From a bacterium (lineage in GTDB: Bacteria; Omnitrophota; Gorgyraeia; Zapsychrales; Fredricksoniimonadaceae), in contig JAJXTI010000001.1 in the NCBI GenBank assembly GCA_021783915.1, positions 1,540-65,539 on the forward strand: DNA of 64,000 nt, given 5' to 3'. Each line of letters starts with the position of its first letter. Position 1 is the first letter of the stretch. Below, piece by piece: positions 4,026 to 21,710 of the stretch. The notes beneath the pieces are model-generated. The model had not been told where the DNA came from. It saw nothing but the letters and a program-made list of their open reading frames with translations, and ran no database searches. The translations under genes were made by a program, and so were the position numbers.

Positions 4026-4125
4026 TGTCCCCCCTTAATAAAAGTTGCCCTATTTGGACGAGTTTCGCAACTGGCTTTATTATGATTTGCCCGAGGAAAA
4101 ACATTTAATTCTTGCCTAATTGCCT

Positions 4126-4332
4126 CTATTCCTCGGCCTCTTCTTTTACCAGCTTGCCGTCCTTTAGGTAAAAAACTGCTTTATCAATCGGACACTCATA
4201 ACCAAATTCGGGAGAATCCTGCCGAACAACACAACCTCCCAAAAGATACCCGCTCGTGTCCTGTTCAGGAGTAATATACCCGTAAAGAACGGGCTTTTCA
4301 ATAAGAGTTGTTGAATGCTCGGGGCAATTCAT
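4126..4332 (-). CDS. hypothetical small protein, possible Cys/His metal-binding
   Basis: 68-aa ORF containing CPEH ... GGC ... ECP. No family recognised. Confidence 0.3.
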   Translation of the reverse strand: MNCPEHSTTLIEKPVLYGYITPEQDTSGYLLGGCVVRQDSPEFGYECPIDKAVFYLKDGKLVKEEAEE

Positions 4333-4461
4333 ATTTAAAGCCTCCCTGTCCCCGCATTAAATATCTTAAAAATCGTTTATGCCTTTTTCACTATTGGCAA
4401 ACATTATACTTTGCTATAAAATGAGAATCAATTAAAACAAATCACAATCCCCATAAATATA

Positions 4462-5580
4462 ATGGCTTATTACAAAACGACCAATAATCATACAAAGAGA
4501 TTCACTAAAAAGCATTACGCCTTGGTAATAGAAGCTATCCGGCATGAATACCTCAACAACCCTTTGCCTCATACCGAGAGCTTTAGCACTCTCTTGGGCG
4601 TTGCTTCACAAACGATAGATGACTATAGACCCCAAGGCATTCCAATAAATCTAAATATTCCTGAACACTCCACGTTAAAAGAAATCCCCTTAGACCTCGT
4701 TGACCAAGTCATAAGTTGGTTAGAATTAGTTGATAAGGCTGTTTATGACCGCTCTGCCAGGGATTACGAACCGCACACACCGCTCGGAAGAATACCAATT
4801 AGCACCCGCAAGGAACCTAATCGTTTTTATCTTATCATTCCTGATTCTTTTAATAACTGGTATAACGGATATGCTGTTCGTCGTGATACCGCCCTTAATG
4901 ATTTAAGTGCTTTAAACCTTGAAAAGATATTCAACCTGGTCATGGACATCAACGATCAATTACAAATGAAACCAACTGAAGAGGTGGTCATAGGAATCGA
5001 CTCCCTCAATATAGACAAATTCCCTTTAATGAGCAGTCACATCATAGGGGATTCAAAGATTATGACCAGCTTCCGGCAAGATGCTTTGGACTATATGGAA
5101 CATGAATTTCTTATTTCATATTCTAAAATCGTCCCTGAGCTCGATAAAATTGCAATTAAACTAAATATTGAAGAATTTACCGCCTTCAAAAAGGAACTCG
5201 CATTAGTGTTTAAGGCAAGGGCTTCCCCATCCAAAGAAGATGCTGAATTAAAAAATGAGGTTTCTTATACCGTTACATTCAACGAAATGACTGGCGAAAT
5301 CCTAATCAATGACAAGGTATTTAAAAAAACTAACTTAGACAGCCTCGCAGACAGCGTTTTTACATTCCTGCATAAAAACCCAAACCGGAAAATAACAATC
5401 GGCGAGCTAAAGAAGGCGACCGGAAAACCCATTAAGGACTTACCAAAAGTAATCGAAAACGCTGGTTTTACAGGCAATCGGCTACGGGCATTTTTCAGAG
5501 TTGGCAAAGACGCTATCTATTTTAGGCCACAAGTTACCAAAGCCGATTTAGAAAAATTAAACATTTCATCCCTTGATTAG
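4462..5580 (+). CDS. hypothetical protein (island cargo)
   Basis: 372-aa ORF after an AT-rich promoter-like stretch. No recognisable motifs. Confidence 0.5.
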   Translation: MAYYKTTNNHTKRFTKKHYALVIEAIRHEYLNNPLPHTESFSTLLGVASQTIDDYRPQGIPINLNIPEHSTLKEIPLDLVDQVISWLELVDKAVYDRSARDYEPHTPLGRIPISTRKEPNRFYLIIPDSFNNWYNGYAVRRDTALNDLSALNLEKIFNLVMDINDQLQMKPTEEVVIGIDSLNIDKFPLMSSHIIGDSKIMTSFRQDALDYMEHEFLISYSKIVPELDKIAIKLNIEEFTAFKKELALVFKARASPSKEDAELKNEVSYTVTFNEMTGEILINDKVFKKTNLDSLADSVFTFLHKNPNRKITIGELKKATGKPIKDLPKVIENAGFTGNRLRAFFRVGKDAIYFRPQVTKADLEKLNISSLD

Positions 5581-5661
5581 TCTTTTTCTTCCCTTAAACA
5601 GCCCTTAAAATTCCCTAAGTAGCCCTATCTCTCCCCAATATCCGTTCCACTATCAAACGCC

Positions 5662-5853
5662 ATGCTACCCTATTTTTGTATGGCGAAATATCCTAAAGAA
5701 TACCTTGAAAAAACAATCCGCCTCTGGCAACCGTACAGCCCAGAGCCATTGACCCTTGAAGACGCCCAGGAAATAGCGGACAACGTCATCGGCCTTTATT
5801 CTTATTTAATCGAACTCAAACAAAAACATGACCAAAAAGAACCGAACCTATAA
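5662..5853 (+). CDS. hypothetical small protein
   Basis: 63-aa ORF between island genes. No motifs. Confidence 0.25.
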   Translation: MLPYFCMAKYPKEYLEKTIRLWQPYSPEPLTLEDAQEIADNVIGLYSYLIELKQKHDQKEPNL

Positions 5854-6355
5854 CACAAAATATATTAAGGCACGGGACACCTACACGGTAAAGGAACTCG
5901 CTGAAGCAATGCCTGTTCATCCAAGAACGGTTCAAGCCTGGAGAAAGCAAGGTCTGTCGCCAGTGGCCGAGGACATGGGCTATCTTCTATTTTTAGGATT
6001 GGAGATTATTCGATTTTTAAAAGTTAAGCGTCAAAAACATAAGCATCCTCTTACCCCAGGGGAATTTTATTGTGTTACCTGCCGACAGCCGAGACACGGG
6101 CAGGCAGACAGCGTCTCCATTGTCCTTACAGGGAAGCCTCTTGGAAAATCTGCTAAACAAGCCTTCATTCGAGGCATTTGTGAAACTTGTGGCCGCCCGC
6201 TCCTGCTGTTTTCCTCTGACCTAAAAATAAGAAAAATGATAGATGGCGGATTGCTGTCCAAAGAACATCAAGCGGTATTATTGGGGGCTGATGATGGCTC
6301 CGTAAACACTGACATTAGGGGAGGTCAAAATAATGAAACTCAATTTAAAAAATGA
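5828..6355 (+). CDS. HTH (excisionase/MerR-like) DNA-binding protein with CxxC...CxxC zinc ribbon
   Basis: YTVKELAEAMPVHPRTVQAWRKQGL is a helix-turn-helix of the excisionase HTH_17 type. It has CVTC...CETCG and sits immediately upstream of the tyrosine integrase. Confidence 0.5.
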   Translation: MTKKNRTYNTKYIKARDTYTVKELAEAMPVHPRTVQAWRKQGLSPVAEDMGYLLFLGLEIIRFLKVKRQKHKHPLTPGEFYCVTCRQPRHGQADSVSIVLTGKPLGKSAKQAFIRGICETCGRPLLLFSSDLKIRKMIDGGLLSKEHQAVLLGADDGSVNTDIRGGQNNETQFKK

Positions 6356-7391
6356 ACTCATCAAACGTAAGTTTTACCGTCGCTTGAAAGAAGCCGAAGG
6401 CATGGCCGAGGCCACTGTTGCAAATATTAAAAAAGCCGTTTTGCTCTATGAAGACTTCACCAAACAAGCTGACTTTATAAAATTCAACACCGATAAAGCC
6501 GTTGAATTTAAAAAATGGCTTCAAAAACGGGAATTTCGGGGTCAAACAATTTCTCTTACTACCTATCACAGCTATTTGCGGTATTTAATAAAATTCTTTA
6601 TATGGCTTTCGGGCGAGCCAGGTTATAAAAGCAGGATAACCCCAGACAAGATAGCCTATTTAAAATTGTCCCGCAAAGAGGAACGGATTGCCACTCAATA
6701 CATTCCCTGCAATTTCCCATCTCTGGAATATGTCCGAAAACTGGCTGACTCCATCCAAATCAACTGTGAAGTGGATATGCGGGATCGGGCTTTGATTGCC
6801 TTCGCCCTTTTAAGCGGGGCAAGAGACAAGGCGTTAGCCACTATCTCCCTGGGGTGTTTTGACGAAGACAATTTAATCATCAACCAAAATCCCCGTGCGG
6901 GCGTTGAAACGAAATTCGCCAAATTCATTGTTACTACCCTGCTCTGCTTTGATGAAAAACTGCTGGGCTTTGTTATCGAATGGGTCAAGTATCTAAAAAC
7001 TAAAGGCTTTGGCTTCCAAGACCCGCTTTTCCCCCGCTCCAAAGCAGACCAGGGAGAAAACAATTTGTCCTTTGAAAGTGCTAAGGACGTTGAGCCTGCG
7101 TTCTGGAAAACCACTGGACGGATAAGGGCGATTTTCAAAAAACGGGCGGAAGAGGCCAAAATGCGCTACTTCCCTCCGCACACCTTTAGACACGCCGCTA
7201 TCCATTTAGGACTTAAATCCTGCGTCAATGGGGAACAAATAAAGGCCATCAGTCAAAATTTCGGACACGAAAATGTAGCCACAACACTATCTTCATACGC
7301 AAATTATGATTCCACGACACTTAACGGCATCATAAGCCGTATTGACTTCTTGAAAAATCCGCCTGGAGAAAACAAACAAAATAACATTTGA
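6333..7391 (+). CDS. tyrosine site-specific recombinase/integrase
   Basis: C-terminal catalytic signature: ALLSGAR ... HTFRHAA ... LSSYANY (R...HxxR...Y). Confidence 0.75.
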   Translation: MKLNLKNELIKRKFYRRLKEAEGMAEATVANIKKAVLLYEDFTKQADFIKFNTDKAVEFKKWLQKREFRGQTISLTTYHSYLRYLIKFFIWLSGEPGYKSRITPDKIAYLKLSRKEERIATQYIPCNFPSLEYVRKLADSIQINCEVDMRDRALIAFALLSGARDKALATISLGCFDEDNLIINQNPRAGVETKFAKFIVTTLLCFDEKLLGFVIEWVKYLKTKGFGFQDPLFPRSKADQGENNLSFESAKDVEPAFWKTTGRIRAIFKKRAEEAKMRYFPPHTFRHAAIHLGLKSCVNGEQIKAISQNFGHENVATTLSSYANYDSTTLNGIISRIDFLKNPPGENKQNNI

Positions 7392-7413
7392 CAACAGTAT
7401 AAAACGCTATATT

Positions 7414-7638
7414 ATGCAAAGAAAGGAACAAATCATGCCAGACCTCATCCGTCGACTCGATACCTACCGTCTGGAAAATAGAATTTCCCAGGAAGAACTT
7501 GCCCAACGGCTGAAAGTCGCTTTTTCGACAGTCAACCGCTGGCTCAACGGAAAATCGAAGCCAAACAAAATCCAAAGTTACCACATTGAAAAACTTGTAA
7601 AAACCGCCGCCAGGAGATCAAACAATGGCAACGCTTGA
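7414..7638 (+). CDS. XRE-family HTH regulator, candidate R-M controller (C-protein-like)
   Basis: 74 aa; ISQEELAQRLKVAFSTVNRWLNG is an XRE HTH. It overlaps the start of the downstream mod gene by 14 nt. Confidence 0.55.
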   Translation: MQRKEQIMPDLIRRLDTYRLENRISQEELAQRLKVAFSTVNRWLNGKSKPNKIQSYHIEKLVKTAARRSNNGNA

Positions 7639-9241
7639 TTTTAAGGGTAAGTCTATCATCCAAAACTATCACCTGACGGTTAAGTATCACGAACTTTTGC
7701 CTCAAAAATCCAAAAGTATGACTGATAAGGTAAGCCTTAATGATAATCTCATCATCCACGGCGATAACTTAAAAGCCCTGAAAGCCCTTTTGCCCACGTA
7801 TGCGGGAAAGGTCAAATGTATTTATATTGATCCTCCCTATAACACGGGAAACGAAAACTGGATTTATAACGATAACGTCAATTCCCCCATGATGCAAGAA
7901 TGGCTCGGCAAGACCGTTGACAAAGAAGACCTCACTCGTCATGACAAGTGGCTCTGCCTGATGACCCCAAGATTAAAATTATTAAAAGACCTGTTAAAAG
8001 AAGATGGCATAATATTTATCTCAATCGACGATAATGAAATACATCGACTACGATTACTCATGGACGAACTATTTGGGGAGGGAAATTTTATTGCTCAATT
8101 AGGCTGGCAAAAAGTATACAGCCCCAAAAACCAATCAACCTACTTCTCCAATGATTATGAGTTTGTTTTATGCTACGCAAAAGATTTATCCAAAATAGAA
8201 ATAAACCTATTGCCAAGAACTACCGAGATGGATTCAAGATATAAGAATCCTGACAATGATCCTCGGGGAGATTGGAAATCTGGCGACCTGATTGCCAGTG
8301 AGGAACGCAAAAATGGTCACTACATTGTTAAAAGTCCTAAAACTGGAAAAGAATTTGACGCGCCTCCAGGAAAACATTGGTCATGCTCAAAAGAAAATAT
8401 GGAAAATTTCTTAGCTGATAACCGTATCTGGTTTGGTAAAGATGGTACCGCCTTCCCAAGCATGAAACAATTTTTAAGTGAAGTAAAACAAGGTCGAAAA
8501 GCATCAAGCCTACTAATGTATAAAGATTATGGACATACTGACGAAGCTAAGAAAGAAATAAAAAGCATCTTTTATGATTCTGAAAAAATCCCGTTCGATA
8601 CGCCAAAGCCTTTAAAGTTAATCAAAAATCTTATTACCCTTGGTTCAAACAAGGATAGCATTATTCTGGATTCATTCGCAGGAAGCGGGACAACGGGTCA
8701 CGCTGTTTTAGATTTAAACCAAGAAGATGGCGGGAAACGAAAATTTATTTTGATCGAATGCGAAAATTATGCTGAAAAAATTACATCTGAAAGAATTAAG
8801 AGAATTATTGAAGGTTTGCCTAAATCTACCGATATATCTTTAAACAAAAAATTAAACGGGTCATTCAGTTATTTTGAATTAGGCAAGCCTATTGAAATGG
8901 AAAATATTTTATCGGGTAAGAATCTGCCTACCTACAAAGAATTAGCCAGGTATATCTTCTACACAGCAACGGGCGAAGAATTTGAAGAAAAAAAGATCAA
9001 CGAAAAGCGTCAATTTATTGGCGAGTCCAAGAATTATGAAATATTTTTGCTCTACAATCCAGACATCACCTCTTTAAAAAAGACAGCCCTGACCCTTGAA
9101 TTGGCAAACAAGCTGGGAGAATTTAAAGGCAAACGCCGTCTTGTTTTTGCGCCGACAAAATATCTGGATAATGAACAGCTAAACCAACTCAAAATTGATT
9201 TTGCCCAACTACCATTTGAAATATACAAATTCGCCGAATAA
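7625..9241 (+). CDS. mod: Type III restriction-modification DNA methyltransferase (Mod, beta-class N6A/N4C MTase)
   Basis: Motif IV DPPY (IYIDPPYNTG) lies N-terminal to motif I FAGSGTTGHAV, which is the beta-class order. It is followed, with overlap, by a Res helicase-nuclease gene. Confidence 0.85.
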   Translation: MATLDFKGKSIIQNYHLTVKYHELLPQKSKSMTDKVSLNDNLIIHGDNLKALKALLPTYAGKVKCIYIDPPYNTGNENWIYNDNVNSPMMQEWLGKTVDKEDLTRHDKWLCLMTPRLKLLKDLLKEDGIIFISIDDNEIHRLRLLMDELFGEGNFIAQLGWQKVYSPKNQSTYFSNDYEFVLCYAKDLSKIEINLLPRTTEMDSRYKNPDNDPRGDWKSGDLIASEERKNGHYIVKSPKTGKEFDAPPGKHWSCSKENMENFLADNRIWFGKDGTAFPSMKQFLSEVKQGRKASSLLMYKDYGHTDEAKKEIKSIFYDSEKIPFDTPKPLKLIKNLITLGSNKDSIILDSFAGSGTTGHAVLDLNQEDGGKRKFILIECENYAEKITSERIKRIIEGLPKSTDISLNKKLNGSFSYFELGKPIEMENILSGKNLPTYKELARYIFYTATGEEFEEKKINEKRQFIGESKNYEIFLLYNPDITSLKKTALTLELANKLGEFKGKRRLVFAPTKYLDNEQLNQLKIDFAQLPFEIYKFAE

Positions 9242-11766
9242 TGGAACTTAAAGAATACCAACAGCGGACATTAAAAGAAATACGGGGCTACCTTGAAAGC
9301 CTTTATAAGTGGTCTGTTAAAAACCAACAGGTTATAAAGGCCGCGGGCTCGGACGCCACCCTTGATTTTCCTTTAAAAGCCTGGGCTGAAACGGTCAAGA
9401 CAAGTTACCGTTCAAGACAAAACGGCCTTGGGCATTACCTCCCTAACTTTTGTCTCAAAATACCTACTGGCGGCGGGAAGACTCTCCTTGCTGTAAAGAC
9501 CATTGATATTATCAATACTGTTTATCGCAAAAAACAAACTGGCCTGGTTCTTTGGGTAGTGCCAAGCAACCAAATCTATAATCAAACCCTAAAAAGTTTA
9601 CGTAACAGGGAACACCCCTACCGCCAGCATTTAGACATTGCCAGCGGTGGACGCACTTCAATCATTGAAAAAATGGATCGTTTTACCCCGCTGGATATTA
9701 AAGAAAATCTGGTTATTTTGCTTTTAATGCTTCCCTCTGCATCCAGGCAAAACAAAGAGACCTTAAAAGTATTTAAGGACAACGGCGGCTTCCAAAATTT
9801 CTTCCCCAGTGAAGATGATGTTGAAGGTAATAAAAAATTGTTGGAAGCCTTCCCGAATCTTGACACCTTTGGCAAAGACAACAGCTTCTTCGGAAGACAG
9901 GTAAAAACCTCTTTGGGCAACACTCTACGGATATTGTCCCCCATCATTATTCTTGATGAAGGGCATAAAGCCTATAGTGATACCGCACAAAAAACCCTGC
10001 GAGGCTTCAACCCCTCCATCATTATTGAGCTGTCTGCCACTCCTAACAAAGAGAGCAATATTCTCGTTGATATTAAAGGCGTCGAATTAGCCCGTGAAGA
10101 AATGATTAAACTTGACCTTCATGTCATCAATAAAGCCAGCTTGGATTGGAAAGATACCATGCTGGCAAGCATTGAGAAACGAAATTTACTTGAAGAAAAG
10201 ACCAAAGACTATCTTGGTTTTACTGGCGAATACATACGGCCTATCTGCTTGATACAGGTTGAACGCACGGGGAAAGACCAAAGAAGCGGGCGATTCATCC
10301 ATGCCGAGGACGTGTTTGATTATCTCGAAAAAGTTTGTGGTATTCCAAAGGAACAAATCGCAATCAAAACAAGCGAAAAAGACGACATTGAGGGGATTAA
10401 CCTTCTATCGCCTTCCTGCCCTATTCGATATATCATCACCAAACAAGCCTTGCAAGAAGGCTGGGACTGTTCTTTTGCCTATGTTTTAACGATACTGACA
10501 AATCCCTCCTCAAAAAATAATTTGACCCAGCTTGTAGGCCGCATTTTAAGACAGCCCTTTGCAAGAAAGACAAAAATTCAAGACCTCGATGAAAGCTATG
10601 TTGTCTGCTTTCAACAAAAAAGCACCCTTGTTTTAAAAAGCATCAAGGAAGGCTTTGAAGATGAAGGCTTGGGCGATTTAACAGGAATGATTATAAGCGA
10701 CTCCTCTGAATCTGGAACTCCACTTGAAGGGGATCGGATTGTTAATATCCGAGATGATTTTAAGAAGCTGGCAGGACAAATATTCTTGCCCGTATTTGTT
10801 TTGAAAGACTTTAAGACATGGCGAAAAGTAAGCTATGAATCCGATATTGTGAGTTTAATTGATTGGGACAAGGCGGACTTCTCCCCTCTTTATAAACTTC
10901 CCTTGTCCTATATTGAAGATCGGGACATCGAAATTGCCGTTGGATTAAGCGACGATGACGATGAGGTCATCCAAAAGCACGGCACTCGCAAACTCAAAGA
11001 AGGCGGGCTGACCCTTGACCTTGTCTTTATTACCCGTCATTTAACTGACATCATCCCTAATCCGTGGGTATCATTTGAAATAGTCCAAAAAATATTTAAA
11101 GAAATAATCAAAAGAAATGACGCTAAAAAGGTCATCAACAACCTTGTCTTTCTTATCGAAGAACTCCGCAAACACGCTGAATCGGAAAAAGACCGTCTCT
11201 CCCAGGAAATATTCATCAATTTAATCGCCAAGAAAGAAATGCGGTTCTTGATTTTAAGAGAATCTGGTGATTACCGTTTGCCCAGCAAAATCAAGGTCAA
11301 GCGTTCCAGCAAAACATTGACGCAAAAAGACGGCCAGCCCCTTCAATACAGCCTCTTTGATTTTGTCCCAGAGGAAAACTTTAATGACGCTGAAAAAGAT
11401 GTGGCCTGGTATCTCGAAGACCAAGAACGGCTCTTGTGGTGGTATCGAAACATCTCCAGGCAGGATTATTCAATACAAGGATGGAAACGCCATAAAGTCT
11501 ACCCTGACTTTATCTTCTCTGACGTTAGAAATAGGGAAAAAGTCGAGTACGACAAAGTTTTTGTTGTTGAAACAAAAGGCATTCATCTTAAAAACAACGA
11601 TGACAGCAACTATAAAAAAGACCTTTTCGCATGGTGTAACAAACTTGCCGAAGAAAAAAGTTGGACGGAACTTGGGCTTTCTTTTCCCGAGAAGAAAATT
11701 ATCTTTGAAGTTATTTCCGAAGACGAGTGGCAAAAAAAGATCAACCAAATATTCTTAGCCAAATGA
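9241..11766 (+). CDS. res: Type III restriction enzyme Res subunit (SF2 helicase plus PD-(D/E)xK nuclease)
   Basis: Walker A KIPTGGGKT and DEGH box (IILDEGHKA). C-terminal nuclease-like YPDF...VVETKG. Its ATG overlaps the mod stop. Confidence 0.85.
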   Translation: MELKEYQQRTLKEIRGYLESLYKWSVKNQQVIKAAGSDATLDFPLKAWAETVKTSYRSRQNGLGHYLPNFCLKIPTGGGKTLLAVKTIDIINTVYRKKQTGLVLWVVPSNQIYNQTLKSLRNREHPYRQHLDIASGGRTSIIEKMDRFTPLDIKENLVILLLMLPSASRQNKETLKVFKDNGGFQNFFPSEDDVEGNKKLLEAFPNLDTFGKDNSFFGRQVKTSLGNTLRILSPIIILDEGHKAYSDTAQKTLRGFNPSIIIELSATPNKESNILVDIKGVELAREEMIKLDLHVINKASLDWKDTMLASIEKRNLLEEKTKDYLGFTGEYIRPICLIQVERTGKDQRSGRFIHAEDVFDYLEKVCGIPKEQIAIKTSEKDDIEGINLLSPSCPIRYIITKQALQEGWDCSFAYVLTILTNPSSKNNLTQLVGRILRQPFARKTKIQDLDESYVVCFQQKSTLVLKSIKEGFEDEGLGDLTGMIISDSSESGTPLEGDRIVNIRDDFKKLAGQIFLPVFVLKDFKTWRKVSYESDIVSLIDWDKADFSPLYKLPLSYIEDRDIEIAVGLSDDDDEVIQKHGTRKLKEGGLTLDLVFITRHLTDIIPNPWVSFEIVQKIFKEIIKRNDAKKVINNLVFLIEELRKHAESEKDRLSQEIFINLIAKKEMRFLILRESGDYRLPSKIKVKRSSKTLTQKDGQPLQYSLFDFVPEENFNDAEKDVAWYLEDQERLLWWYRNISRQDYSIQGWKRHKVYPDFIFSDVRNREKVEYDKVFVVETKGIHLKNNDDSNYKKDLFAWCNKLAEEKSWTELGLSFPEKKIIFEVISEDEWQKKINQIFLAK

Positions 11767-13325
11767 CACCTTCTGCCCTTCTATACGTGCGAGTATCCAG
11801 CAAAGACCAGGAAAAAGAAGGCTGGTCTTTGGATGCCCAGGAAAAACTGGGCTATGAATACGCCAAGCGCAAAGGCTTTAATATTGTCAAAATGTGGAAG
11901 GTGTCGGAATCTGCCTGGCGCAAGGAACGAGTTGCCTTCAATCAAATGGTGGAATATGCCAAGAACCATGACGAGATTAAGCATATTATCTTTGACGTAT
12001 TAGACCGCATGACCCGCAACGACTTTGATAAACTCAAAATCGTCACCCTCGTCAAAGAATACGGAAAGAATATCCACTTTTCCCGAAGCAACAAGATTTT
12101 CAACCGTGAATCAAGCACGGATGACGAATTTATGTTTGATATTGAGGTTGCCGTTGCCAAAAAGCAATCCAATGACATTTCCCGCAAAACTCAAATGGGC
12201 ATGGTTGAGAAAGCCGAGCAGGGCTTCTTCCCTGCCACCGCCCCGCTTGGCTATAAGAATAACCGAGAGAAAAAACTACTCGAACTAAACCCTGACCAGG
12301 CGGCCAGCATTAAAAAAGCCTTTGAATTGATGTCTACGGGAAAATATTCCCTCGATATGATTAGAGAAATTCCTGAAGTAAAGGGACTTAAAACTAACCG
12401 AAGCAACAAAGTTAATAAAAGTACCCTTTCCTATGTGCTAAACAACCCTTTCTATTATGGCCTCTTCCAATGGAAAGGAAAAATTTACCAAGGCAATCAT
12501 GAACCTTTAATCTCAAAAGAGCTTTTTGACCGCACCCAACAGGTCTTAAACGGAAAATTTCATACCCGCAAGAGTAAAAAGGGGTTTGCCTTTAATAATC
12601 TTCTGGTGTGCGGGGAGTGTAGCTGTAAGGTTCTGGGAGAGGAAAAGCGCAAGCCCAATAATCTCCACTATGTTTATTACCATTGTACTTTTTCAAAGGG
12701 CAGACACAACGGCAAAGGCTATATTCCTGAAACCCGTCTTGCCCAACTTTTTGAAAAACCCGTTATGGATGTTGTCTTGCCAGCAGAGATGTCTGACTGG
12801 ATTAAAGAAGGGCTTGGACATGACCGTAAAAACCTATCAGAAACGCACGAGAACCGCCTTAAATCGCTTCAAAGCCAACACAGTAAGGTCAATGACCGAT
12901 TAAACCGTCTTTACGACGATAGATTTGACGGTAAGGTGGATGATGAGGTCTTTAAAACAAAGGAAACTGAATACAAGGCGTTGTTGCTTGAGATAAAGGG
13001 CGAGATTGAAAAGGCCAAGAAAGTAAATCCAAACTTCTATGAAGACGGGCTTGCAACCCTCGAACTCCCGAACCTGTATATTTCCCAATATGATAAAGCA
13101 AGCTATCCAAACAAGGCCGTCATACTCAAAAAATTAGCCTCGAACTACACCCTAAATGACGTAACTATAACTGCCGCATATAGACAACCCTTCATCTTCT
13201 TAGCGAAAATGAAGGGTTGTCCAAACTGGTTGCCCCGTCTGGACTCGAACCAGAATACTGAGATCCAGAGTCTCATGTCCTACCAATTAGACGACAGGGC
13301 AAGTAAAACAAAAAACCGCCATTAA
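11763..13325 (+). CDS. large serine recombinase (resolvase/invertase catalytic domain plus zinc ribbon and coiled coil)
   Basis: ALLYVRVSSKDQ is the catalytic Ser motif. A recombinase domain, CGECSC...HC zinc ribbon and coiled-coil tail follow. Start ATG 11763 overlaps the res stop (ATGA). The last ~33 codons read through tRNA-Gln on the opposite strand. Confidence 0.8.
   Translation: MTPSALLYVRVSSKDQEKEGWSLDAQEKLGYEYAKRKGFNIVKMWKVSESAWRKERVAFNQMVEYAKNHDEIKHIIFDVLDRMTRNDFDKLKIVTLVKEYGKNIHFSRSNKIFNRESSTDDEFMFDIEVAVAKKQSNDISRKTQMGMVEKAEQGFFPATAPLGYKNNREKKLLELNPDQAASIKKAFELMSTGKYSLDMIREIPEVKGLKTNRSNKVNKSTLSYVLNNPFYYGLFQWKGKIYQGNHEPLISKELFDRTQQVLNGKFHTRKSKKGFAFNNLLVCGECSCKVLGEEKRKPNNLHYVYYHCTFSKGRHNGKGYIPETRLAQLFEKPVMDVVLPAEMSDWIKEGLGHDRKNLSETHENRLKSLQSQHSKVNDRLNRLYDDRFDGKVDDEVFKTKETEYKALLLEIKGEIEKAKKVNPNFYEDGLATLELPNLYISQYDKASYPNKAVILKKLASNYTLNDVTITAAYRQPFIFLAKMKGCPNWLPRLDSNQNTEIQSLMSYQLDDRASKTKNRH
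13227..13301 (-). tRNA. tRNA-Gln (anticodon CTG)
   Basis: Hand-folded cloverleaf. Acceptor TGCCCTG/CGGGGCA with U1:A72. Anticodon stem TGAGA/TCTCA with loop CTCTGGA. T-arm TCTGG-TTCGAGT-CCAGA. CCA encoded. Confidence 0.8.
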
Positions 13326-20105: not shown

Positions 20106-21509
20106 ATGATTTATACTTATAAAGACACCCGTCCCGGTCAACATTTGGTTATGGTTCCTATTTCTATCAAATCAATTGAAGAAACTTCCGTCATACGAAA
20201 ATTTACCCTGCTTTTCCTTATAGCTTCTATCCTGCCTCTTCTTCTCCTTTGTTTGTTTTATCTTGAGTCTCTCCACAACGACAAACTCCCCCTGTTTATC
20301 AGCAATCTTAAACCTGCCCTTCTGTTGACCGTTATCGGTACGGGATTTGGGTATTGGGCCATGCGCAAAATCGTCTCTGAGTTTGTCCGGGCCACGAAAT
20401 CCAACCGCCAGGCCTTTTCAAAAATAATAGGGCAAGATCTTTTGCCCACTTCCGATGAAGAAACGAATGAACTCTTTTTGCTTATACGCACCTTTAACGA
20501 AATAAAGTCCTCGCTGGAAAAAGACATTCAACGTTTGGAATTGACCAAGCAAACTTTGAATTCTGTACTATTAAAAGTCAGCAAAGGGATCGCGTCAGCA
20601 AAAACTCTTGACCATTTTCTACAATTGATTATTGAAACCATTACCGAGGCCTTGATGGGGCGCGCTGGGAGTATATTTTTAATTGATAAACAAGAATTTT
20701 TCGTCAAATCCTCCTGGGGAGAAAACAGTGAATCTTTAACGGGAGTAAGGTTCAAGACAGATTCTCCTTTGTTTCAAGATGTCCTGCGCTCTAAAGGCGG
20801 ACTGATTATCTCTACCCCTGAATCTATTCTCCCTAGCGCCCCCTCTCAGGTCTCGGGTTTTCTTGAATTCCCATTGATTTGCTGTCCGCTGACTGTCAGC
20901 GACCGTCCAGTTGGCCTTATTTTGGTCTGCGGCAGAAGGATCCCGGAAGATTTTCAGGAATATGAACTGTCCCTGCTTAACAATGTGGCGGCCCAGGCGA
21001 CCCTGGCCATCAATAATGAAGAATTGAAACATCTCTCCCGTATTGACCCTTTGACCAATATATACAATTATCGCCATTTGGTGGAAACCCTGGATTATGA
21101 AATACACCGCTGCAAAAGATACCCTGAAAAGCTGTACCTCCTGCTGGTTGATATTGATGACTTTAAAGCCTATAACGATGCCTTGGGGCATCTTGCGGGG
21201 GATGCGTTATTACAAGAGATCCCTCGTGCGATGAGTCATCAACTGCGCATAAGCGATACCATTTGTCGTTACGAAGGCGATGAATTTTCGATCATCCTGC
21301 CACAAACAGACCTCCAGGGGGCCCAAACCGTCGCGAATAAAATAAAAGCATCTCTCGAGAACTCTGTCTTCGAAAAGAAAATAACAGCCTGCATCGGCAT
21401 CGCCGAGTGGTCCGAGGAGATTGACCGTAGAGAGTTAATGTTTAAGGCCGAAGGGGCCCTCTCCCAAGCCAAAAAAGAGGGTAAAAATAAGATTGTCGTG
21501 AGTCAATAA
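20106..21509 (+). CDS. GAF-domain diguanylate cyclase with degenerate GGDEF motif (RYEGDEF) and an intact RxxD I-site
   Basis: The ORF-track start at 19602 overlaps rarA on the opposite strand, so the start is moved to Met 20106 before an N-terminal TM segment. GGDEF-domain residues DIDDFKAYND, then RISD-TIC-RYEGDEF. Confidence 0.75.
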   Translation: MIYTYKDTRPGQHLVMVPISIKSIEETSVIRKFTLLFLIASILPLLLLCLFYLESLHNDKLPLFISNLKPALLLTVIGTGFGYWAMRKIVSEFVRATKSNRQAFSKIIGQDLLPTSDEETNELFLLIRTFNEIKSSLEKDIQRLELTKQTLNSVLLKVSKGIASAKTLDHFLQLIIETITEALMGRAGSIFLIDKQEFFVKSSWGENSESLTGVRFKTDSPLFQDVLRSKGGLIISTPESILPSAPSQVSGFLEFPLICCPLTVSDRPVGLILVCGRRIPEDFQEYELSLLNNVAAQATLAINNEELKHLSRIDPLTNIYNYRHLVETLDYEIHRCKRYPEKLYLLLVDIDDFKAYNDALGHLAGDALLQEIPRAMSHQLRISDTICRYEGDEFSIILPQTDLQGAQTVANKIKASLENSVFEKKITACIGIAEWSEEIDRRELMFKAEGALSQAKKEGKNKIVVSQ

Positions 21510-21710
21510 AAAATCCCGCAGATGCCGTTGGGCTGGTGTAATGAGAACCATCGTTCTCAAGTGGGCGCCGGTATGTGGACGACTAGGCGTGCCAGCAAGA
21601 ACCAGCTCCCTCGTGTATTGTTTGTGGTTCAATACATCCGAACCCTGACGCACACCGCAGGATAATTGAATTATATCACGGAAGAACTTTAGTGCAAATC
21701 GAATAAAAAA

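Follow-up and report, generated by a model that had tools for sequence, protein, structure and literature searches.

Large serine integrases such as phiC31, Bxb1, A118, TnpX, CcrA/B and XisF combine Resolvase and Recombinase domains with a zinc ribbon, and their genes lie at the end of the element beside the attachment (att) site. To our knowledge, the characterised members target protein-coding or intergenic sites with just a 2-bp shared core, and tRNA 3' ends are regarded as the territory of tyrosine integrases. Here, we describe a putative integrated element at the end of a tRNA-Gln(CTG) gene of an Omnitrophota bacterium, in a stretch of 64,000 nucleotides (nt) of contig JAJXTI010000001.1, referred to below as the window. 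The element encodes a large serine recombinase (LSR) with the same domains and the same terminal gene position as the large serine integrases; its family differs from them in lying at tRNA 3' ends, in sharing 6-10 bp with the tRNA and in placing attP within the open reading frame (ORF) of the LSR itself.

In archaeal SSV1-type integrases, attP lies in the int ORF, and the gene is split upon integration at a tRNA. The LSR gene likewise contains a tRNA-identical segment in its coding sequence, and integration would alter its product; however, the SSV1-type enzymes are tyrosine integrases separated into two large halves, whereas the serine enzyme would lose only a tail of ~25 amino acids (aa). 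In the mycobacteriophages BPs and Brujita, the repressor gene contains attP, and the repressor loses a C-terminal tag upon integration (integration-dependent immunity). A changed C-terminus would similarly distinguish the integrated from the free state here, although in those phages the repressor is altered and the integrase is a tyrosine enzyme, whereas in this element the serine integrase itself would be altered. The classical tRNA islands with tyrosine integrases (Islander-type and P4-like, PMC4383910) also insert at tRNA 3' ends, restore the gene, leave a displaced fragment and show accretion and relics; in the present family, by contrast, the serine recombinase adjoins the tRNA, and the tyrosine enzyme is encoded internally, with part of the family doing without it. 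Pipolins are defence-carrying integrative platforms (PMC11551731). Together with the P4-like satellites and the hotspots of integrative and conjugative elements, they resemble this small tRNA element in having a conserved backbone and exchangeable defence genes, but the latter has no piPolB, uses an LSR in place of XerC-like integrases and packs its cargo inside the integrase operon. The controller (C) proteins of restriction-modification (R-M) systems, finally, share with this locus a small XRE-type helix-turn-helix (HTH) gene that overlaps the first R-M gene and a promoter with an operator-like repeat. The XRE gene here differs in belonging to the element, since the same promoter/operator occurs without cargo or with unrelated cargo.

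We consider it probable that window positions 4045-13235 are a single integrated mobile element of ~9.19 kb. This grading applies jointly to the whole explanation, that is, one element, an LSR acting as the tRNA integrase, a swap of the LSR tail and a regulator belonging to the element. As judged by sequence comparison, the element is one of a large family, with members in Omnitrophota, Planctomycetota, Zixibacteria and other uncultured lineages. We found no description of this family in the literature, although large integrase catalogues may still include members. The features, in window coordinates, are as follows.

4042..4050, no strand: putative attL core, AAGTTGCCC, displaced remnant of the native tRNA-Gln 3' end; its TTGCCC repeats at 13230-13235
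4051..4119, plus strand: P' arm of the attachment site, with the motif TTGGACGAGTTTCGCAACTGG at 4054-4074; in the LSR frame it encodes YLDEFRNWLYYDLPEEKHLILA and a stop codon
4126..4332, minus strand: 68-aa ORF, "left cargo" between attL and the core genes; no family match
4333..4461, no strand: divergent intergenic region, with promoter-like sites (consensus matches only) at 4394-4422 on the plus strand and 4431-4403 on the minus strand
4462..5580, plus strand: 372-aa core protein, no family match, candidate multi-winged-helix DNA-binding protein
5662..5853, plus strand: small conserved core protein, 57-63 aa, likely start 5680; no family match
5828..6355, plus strand: excisionase-like HTH/Zn-ribbon (HTH/Zn) protein; sub-threshold Pfam HTH_17/MerR matches, CxxC...CxxC, translational coupling to the tyrosine recombinase
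6333..7391, plus strand: tyrosine recombinase; Pfam Phage_integrase 1.8e-07, PHROG integrase 1.8e-14, full catalytic set
7388..7415, plus strand: promoter-like site TTGACA-16-TATTAT (11/12), overlapping the operator-like sequence ACGCTATAnnATGCAA
7414..7638, plus strand: XRE HTH protein, likely start ATG 7435 (67 aa); HTH_3 7.8e-09; overlaps the mod start
7625..9241, plus strand: Type III Mod, cargo, 538 aa; PADLOC MTase_III 1.8e-162
9241..11766, plus strand: Type III Res, cargo; PADLOC REase_III 3.7e-184
11727..13325, plus strand: LSR, likely start ATG 11763, overlapping the res stop; Resolvase, Recombinase, PHROG 95
13183..13221, no strand: hairpin within the LSR coding sequence, 17-nt inverted repeat, 19 pairs in the fold
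13227..13301, minus strand: tRNA-Gln(CTG), the predicted integration target (attR), with the core TTGCCC at 13230-13235 in the 3' acceptor strand and CCA at 13227-13229
13227-13325, plus strand: last 33 LSR codons, antisense to tRNA-Gln plus its upstream flank

The right boundary and the empty site were evident from comparison with relatives (labels such as L001, L016 and L141 denote individual related loci compared with the window). The GltX protein encoded beside the tRNA assigns the window to Candidatus Omnitrophota. The order gltX, small lipoprotein and tRNA-Gln is kept in dozens of Omnitrophota relatives, whose nucleotide sequences cease to resemble the window at 13227-13230, where the tRNA 3' end lies. 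Beyond the tRNA, no element genes were present in the ~9.6 kb available in L004 and L043 or in the ~5-6 kb available in L001 and L003; L005, with just ~0.7 kb, was too short for judging occupancy. In L001, whose GltX is 85% identical, synteny picks up again at the homologue of the window ORF 1677-2885. The original prediction had placed an integrated element at this tRNA-Gln(CTG) and suggested looking for its empty site, and the related genomes indeed carry the same tRNA-Gln site without the element. In addition, L016, L081 and L090 hold the same element at the same tRNA-Gln without an R-M system, with an LSR 61-70% identical to that of the window and, ahead of it, homologues of the tyrosine recombinase, HTH/Zn protein and 63-aa protein; the Type III R-M genes are therefore regarded as cargo. 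The G+C content of the element is 41.0%, as compared with 45.3% for the remaining window, and among 9-kb sliding windows over the 64 kb the minimum was 40.9%, with the lowest ones all overlapping the element. This deviation is modest yet real, and the AT-richness noticed earlier was thereby confirmed. All nine element ORFs are intact, and every ORF was found where it had been predicted.

The left boundary, in contrast, had been set at 4340, whereas the actual left end lies at ~4045-4050 and is marked by the 21-nt motif TTGGACGAGTTTCGCAACTGG. The 68-aa ORF on the minus strand (4126-4332), which gene callers also predict on further contigs of the strain, therefore falls inside the element. A short repeat of the tRNA 3' end, which had been suspected at 3.7-4.5 kb, is present as TTGCCC at 4045-4050. 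A generic repeat search (seed 10) returned no direct repeat of the tRNA end, and the core and P' arm appeared through the family comparison only. The motif matches the window exactly once, and 100 shuffles gave no match. When up to 4 mismatches are allowed, more than 20 related elements have it to the left of their core genes, and in each case a tRNA-acceptor-like TGG-N7 comes before it. The flank left of the window attL core, TTAATAAAAG-TTGCCC, resembles the native tRNA-Gln flank of L001, TTAAATAAA-TTGCCCC. In the junction alignment, attR consists of the LSR 3' end, TGGTTGCCYC and the tRNA body, attL of an unrelated flank, (TG)GTTGCCY and the P' arm, and the L081 tandem of the P arm of L016 joined to P'. 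The common core across the family is thus 6-10 bp of the acceptor strand plus CCA (TGGTTGCCYC), represented in the window by TTGCCC. The native tRNA-Gln(CTG) genes of several relatives (e.g., L001 5691-5762) encode no CCA, and occupied sites do (13227-13229 in the window), presumably because the element supplies the tRNA end.

The LSR ORF has no stop codon ahead of the tRNA and reads in antisense through the entire tRNA gene, a feature missed earlier. The integrated copy accordingly ends in ...CPNWLP-RLDSNQNTEIQ..., where the tail is antisense to the tRNA. The frame of the P' arm is the LSR frame, and joining 13235 to 4051 gives ...KMKGCPNWLP-YLDEFRNWLYYDLPEEKHLILA followed by a stop codon at 4117-4119. 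In all 26 distinct P' arms, the LSR frame was open for 10-32 codons past NW, while the other two frames were open for at least 8 codons in 62% and 50% of the arms. The encoded tails share DEFxNWL(Y/F)xxEE...L(A)L(I) and a stop; outside the search pattern, conservation is strongest at second codon positions, and synonymous variation is seen in the codons for Leu, Val, Asp and Glu. These patterns point to a conserved LSR tail of ~25 aa (LDEFxNWL...) whose codons lie at the far end of the element and which is joined to the enzyme solely in the circular form. Since attP would lie inside the LSR ORF, integration would swap the C-terminus of the enzyme, and the conservation of the tail frame as coding sequence would require recurrent passage through an excised form.

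The same observations bear on the possibility that the locus is a fixed, immobile remnant, such as a domesticated defence island, in which the overlap of LSR and tRNA is functionless read-through. Such a remnant would agree with the constant presence of the element beside the identical flanking MORN protein, with the failure to find a circular junction and with an integrated-state LSR tail that is set by the tRNA sequence alone. Nine intact ORFs out of nine, att arms that fit the family consensus (0 mismatches in the P' motif) and a tail frame kept coding across the family, which requires a recurrent excised form, argue against it, and we regard it as decidedly unlikely. As for junctions of the excised type, the motif TTGGACGAGTTTCGCAACTGG directly follows some LSR genes, in L086, L089 and L110 and, after a degraded LSR remnant, in L081. 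These LSR-P' junctions are attP-like, as would be expected from excised forms or tandem arrays. L086 was considered as a circle and rejected, as its ends show no terminal overlap and no ORF is continuous across them; because signs of circularity are absent, its junction may derive from either a tandem array or an excised form.

We next turn to the enzyme that would act at this site. The two recombinase classes recognised in the original prediction were both recovered, with a Phage_integrase domain at 6333-7391 and Resolvase (1.3e-20) and Recombinase (6e-15) domains at 11727-13325; the LSR also matches PHROG 95 (integrase, 3.7e-78). The Pfam Zn_ribbon_recom match is sub-threshold at 0.0026, and the zinc-ribbon call therefore rests mainly on C283, C286, C288, H307 and C308, which are invariant among homologues. 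R10, S12 and S13 are invariant in 47 homologues, with the catalytic Ser in an RVSS motif. The best named NCBIfam models are CcrB (2.7e-26) and XisF (7.7e-25), both far under their cut-offs, and comparison with solved structures gave no match outside the catalytic domain. The LSR family comprises at least 448 homologues at E<1e-60. Most of the 120 listed LSR C-termini read ...Y(R/K)KPFxFxAKGxSRxxWLPxxDSN..., which is the antisense of a tRNA 3' end: W corresponds to CCA, LP and the next residues to the acceptor strand, and DSN to the T-loop. ARAGORN detected an antisense tRNA at the LSR end in 36 of 60 LSR-query loci (Asn 17, Asp 6, His 5, Gln 4, Arg 3 and Glu 1). Further related elements adjoin tRNAs with a group I intron, which is why ARAGORN misses them (L082 15405-15633, L100 11495-11697, L106 4259-4477 and L115 11492-11698; Rfam RF00028, 69-84 bits).

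We assign tRNA integration to the LSR chiefly because LSR elements without a tyrosine recombinase join tRNAs likewise, at tRNA-Gln(TTG) in L096, L099 and L112 and at tRNA-Asn in L137 and L142. In six loci (L093, L099, L114, L137, L142 and L150), the 35 ORFs that precede the LSR include no Phage_integrase domain. Those ORFs include Rep_1, Replic_Relax, a DnaB-like helicase, a family A polymerase (PolA), R-M genes and ThsB, and these replication-type genes suggest that the wider family is replicative and plasmid- or phage-like. In addition, the att site is always adjoined and crossed by the LSR gene and never by the tyrosine recombinase gene. From these comparisons, the LSR is likely the tRNA integrase. 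Alternatively, the true tRNA integrase could be the tyrosine recombinase together with the excisionase-like HTH/Zn protein, and the LSR would serve resolution, inversion or secondary transposition. This alternative would account for a Xis-like gene directly ahead of the tyrosine recombinase gene, for a catalytic set that is intact and under purifying selection, and for a tRNA 3'-end target at which the tRNA is restored, 6-10 bp are shared as a common core and a fragment is displaced; tyrosine systems also commonly give rise to tandem arrays, and to relics without recombinases, at one tRNA. It does not agree with the tRNA-joined elements and the six loci just described, with the identity of the gene crossing att, with a P' arm that encodes a conserved LSR tail, or with the absence of the enzyme from 11 of the 37 loci with sufficient upstream sequence. 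We judge it unlikely, and keep a small share of probability for it because the arrays and relics fit a tyrosine enzyme better than the serine synapsis model.

The two recombinases recur together. An LSR-profile scan of metagenome contigs returned 80 loci, and in dozens of diverged loci the order is the small protein, the HTH/Zn protein, the tyrosine recombinase, XRE, the cargo slot, the LSR and an antisense tRNA. Among the 37 LSR-query loci with at least 4 kb of upstream sequence, the tyrosine recombinase was present in 26, XRE in 31 and the 63-aa protein in 25. The contexts of the 372-aa homologues are all alike, with the 372-aa protein followed by the small protein, the HTH/Zn protein, the tyrosine recombinase, XRE, variable genes and the LSR. 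Three tyrosine-recombinase homologues, sampled on long contigs, each have an HTH gene and cargo downstream. Beyond the cargo, L174 and L179 have resolvase or LSR genes, or fragments of them, the available sequence of L176 ends before any LSR, and L178 has an uncalled 2-kb gap at the expected place. This constancy bears on the earlier suggestion of a composite element, or an island moved by either recombinase. A chance nesting or fusion of two independent elements, one tyrosine and one serine, with the R-M system owned by one of them, would explain the presence of two recombinase classes inside 9 kb with R-M genes between them. However, the order recurs in dozens of loci at seven different tRNA species, with 36-72% identity for the tyrosine recombinase and 45-70% for the LSR, and the two recombinases are therefore a conserved pair rather than a chance composite. 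Moreover, a search for a second att-like repeat pair in the element found none beyond the single attL/attR pair, and otherwise identical architectures lack R-M genes. Chance nesting is thus highly unlikely.

Several related loci depart from this layout. In L174 (3295-8732 and 10368-12557), a Zixibacteria metagenome-assembled genome, the left-cargo region contains a complete type I-E CRISPR-Cas operon, and the LSR gene is apparently split by a Fic gene. In L081, the 3' end of a degraded LSR gene is joined to a P' arm (7334-7548) to the left of the intact element at tRNA-Gln, and in L089 two short P'-bounded segments (7071-9017) lie between the intact element and tRNA-Gln. The P' motif is found downstream of tRNA-Gln with no recombinase genes in between in L008 (13021-13054) and L010 (10939-10979), the intervening DNA being a 0.6-kb pair of small genes in L008 and one gene of 2282 aa in L010. 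These two loci look like recombinase-less relics or units mobilisable in trans.

The XRE gene had been interpreted as a C-protein-like regulator of the R-M system. Its homologues are 60-78% identical and better conserved than the tyrosine recombinase. In ~17 cargo-free loci, 11-59 nt separate the gene from the LSR downstream; elsewhere the gene precedes Mrr, GmrSD, Type I, IIG, Fic and M48 cargo. Co-inheritance with, and specificity for, one R-M system, as expected of a C protein, was not seen. Upstream of XRE, ~40 related loci have TTGAC(n)-17-TATAnnAT, overlapping ACGCTATAnnATGCAA or an ATGYTA repeat, and this conserved operator-like repeat, a putative operator, overlaps the -10 hexamer. Because the same promoter/operator occurs without cargo or with unrelated cargo, the regulator ahead of mod belongs to the element. 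As judged from these contexts, XRE is a core element gene and not a C protein of the R-M system, although it may act like one.

The slot between XRE and the LSR holds 0-5 kb of tightly packed genes on the same strand. Across relatives, it contains Type III, I, II, IIG or IV restriction genes or Fic, or is empty. A census of 51 slot ORFs in 25 loci gave 12 Type III Mod and 9-10 Type III Res; the others include Type I, IIG/ISP, EcoRI-methylase/HindIII, GmrSD, Mrr, HNH, Fic and M48 peptidase genes. The window mod-res pair is, by gene content and order, a Type III R-M system, as had been predicted from the sequence: PADLOC MTase_III matches Mod over the full model, and REase_III matches Res over model positions 70-878 of 883. 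In Mod, IDPPYNTG (motif IV) lies ahead of DSFAGSGTTG (motif I), the beta-class order, with a Pfam N6_N4_Mtase match at 2.7e-39. Res has the helicase motifs PTGGGKT and DEGH, a C-terminal PD...ExK (YPDF...VVETKG) and a Pfam ResIII match at 3.3e-16. The mod gene is upstream of res with a 1-nt overlap at 9241, and the nearest relative of the pair is in L141, at 67-68% identity.

At least 95% of 34 homologues of the tyrosine recombinase retain R164, K194, H283, R286, H312 and Y322. The Phage_integrase match of the enzyme scores 31.5 bits against a cut-off of 27.1, and no PDB sequence matched it. C82, C85, C118 and C121 of the HTH/Zn protein are conserved in at least 95% of 28 homologues; the four Cys thus support the excisionase-like HTH/Zn protein proposed earlier, whereas its HTH_17/MerR Pfam matches fall below the gathering cut-offs. 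Since the catalytic set and the four Cys are conserved, the pair appears to be functional. The tyrosine recombinase is, as mentioned, missing from 11 of the 37 loci, and relatives without the pair have XRE or the LSR immediately after the 63-aa gene, so that the pair looks like an inserted two-gene module. Its role could be excision at the shared core, the resolution of multimers or tandem arrays, or second-site integration; we tentatively favour excision, or the resolution of multimers or tandems, at the same core. An integron-like capture of cargo is thought unlikely, because the XRE/mod and res/LSR overlaps leave no room for cassette sites.

The 372-aa protein and the protein at 5662-5853 have no match in Pfam, NCBIfam, PHROG or PADLOC, in line with the first reading of the sequence, and the profile search suggested for the former was negative in these same databases. 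The C-terminal 100 aa of the 372-aa protein are highly conserved. Its 13 word-indexed homologues all lie in the same element context, and its profile matches 849 cluster representatives. An AlphaFold2 model (pLDDT 75) gave RepE, ToxR/OmpR and RepA WH1 as the top Foldseek hits, all non-significant. Foldseek against PDB and BFVD returned nothing at E <=0.001, and the winged-helix hits to OmpR and to the plasmid initiators RepE, RepA and TrfA are only hints. The protein is probably a multi-winged-helix DNA-binding protein, although a role in binding DNA, possibly for replication or maintenance, is a guess. A relationship with aequorin was rejected as noise (E 0.04), and no PDB sequence relative was found.

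The hairpin at 13183-13221 (-32.3 kcal/mol, z -6.8) falls within LSR codons; 5 nt separate it from the tRNA 3' end, and its position is kept across the family. On the tRNA strand of the relatives, it consists of a stem plus a U-tract. At the empty site of L001, the native tRNA-Gln has its own terminator hairpin, and the hairpin of the element probably replaces the native terminator. As a canonical terminator, the window hairpin was not flagged by a terminator scan, because this copy has no U-run.

In the mechanism that we propose, the LSR would insert the circle at the acceptor-stem/CCA end of a tRNA gene through the 6-10-bp core, TTGCCC here. The element would supply the last tRNA bases including CCA, along with the hairpin that replaces the tRNA terminator. 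The circle would encode an LSR ending in ...CPNWLP-YLDEFRNWLYYDLPEEKHLILA, and integration would swap in the tRNA-antisense end ...CPNWLP-RLDSNQNTEIQ.... The predicted attP junction of the excised circle is ...GGTTGTCCAAACTGGTTGCCCTATTTGGACGAGTTTCGCAACTGG..., and that of the emptied attB site is ...CCCCTTAATAAAAGTTGCCCCGTCTGGACTCGAACC.... The genes from XRE to the LSR would form one operon, transcribed from the conserved promoter/operator and probably autoregulated by the XRE protein, in which case the element, and not the R-M system, would supply the regulator.

Several points weigh against this account. The identical 6-10-bp core at the tRNA end, the displaced fragment and the tandem arrays and relics (L081, L089, L008 and L010) are classical signatures of tyrosine integrases. 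Large serine integrases, as currently modelled, should disfavour attP x attR recombination, so tandem arrays are harder to explain by an LSR. The crossover point and the cutting enzyme cannot be read from the sequence, and it is pure inference that the C-terminal swap regulates integration or excision. In L141, the bearer of the closest R-M relative, the LSR tail is neither tRNA-like nor P'-like, and the window hairpin has a poor U-tract. Moreover, neither an excised circle or circular junction of this element nor a same-strain empty site was found, as all contigs with the identical MORN85 protein also carry the element; the mobility of this particular copy is therefore not shown. A same-strain search by the exact GltX sequence matched no record, and scans of viral contigs with single proteins (the LSR and the tyrosine recombinase) and with the exact P' motif returned no match.

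Within the LSR-based mechanism, we also considered that the att site in the LSR gene acts as a state switch. The excised circle alone would encode the full-length, integrating LSR with the LDEFxNWL...EE helix, the tail-swapped LSR of the integrated state would be unable to integrate or altered, and the tyrosine recombinase with its Xis-like HTH/Zn partner would excise at the same 6-10-bp core. This specific version is speculative, and we think it improbable. If true, integration and excision would be split between two enzymes in the service of a dedicated slot for R-M and defence cargo.

Outside the element, the window contains a 6S RNA on the minus strand at 21509-21666 (Rfam RF00013, 60 bits). 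The region 540-1627 has no long ORF, just overlapping ORFs of ~100 aa in differing frames; in L001, pfkA comes after the homologue of the ORF 1677-2885. The region may be a degraded gene or a non-coding stretch.

The family is widespread and apparently undescribed, and it is marked by probable LSR-driven tRNA targeting, an att site inside the integrase gene, a regulator-fronted defence slot and a conserved accessory tyrosine recombinase. Should the LSR prove to be the integrase, the conserved 3' ends of tRNA genes (Asn, Asp, His, Gln, Arg and Glu) would be natural targets for hundreds of serine integrases, whose predictable attB sites would suit integrase-based engineering of uncultured phyla. 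The in-frame tail swap would offer a new handle on the open question of how serine integrases control direction. A small HTH gene before mod need not be a C protein, which calls for caution in annotation. The fixed, regulator-fronted slot illustrates how restriction systems travel as packaged cargo in Omnitrophota, Planctomycetota and Zixibacteria.

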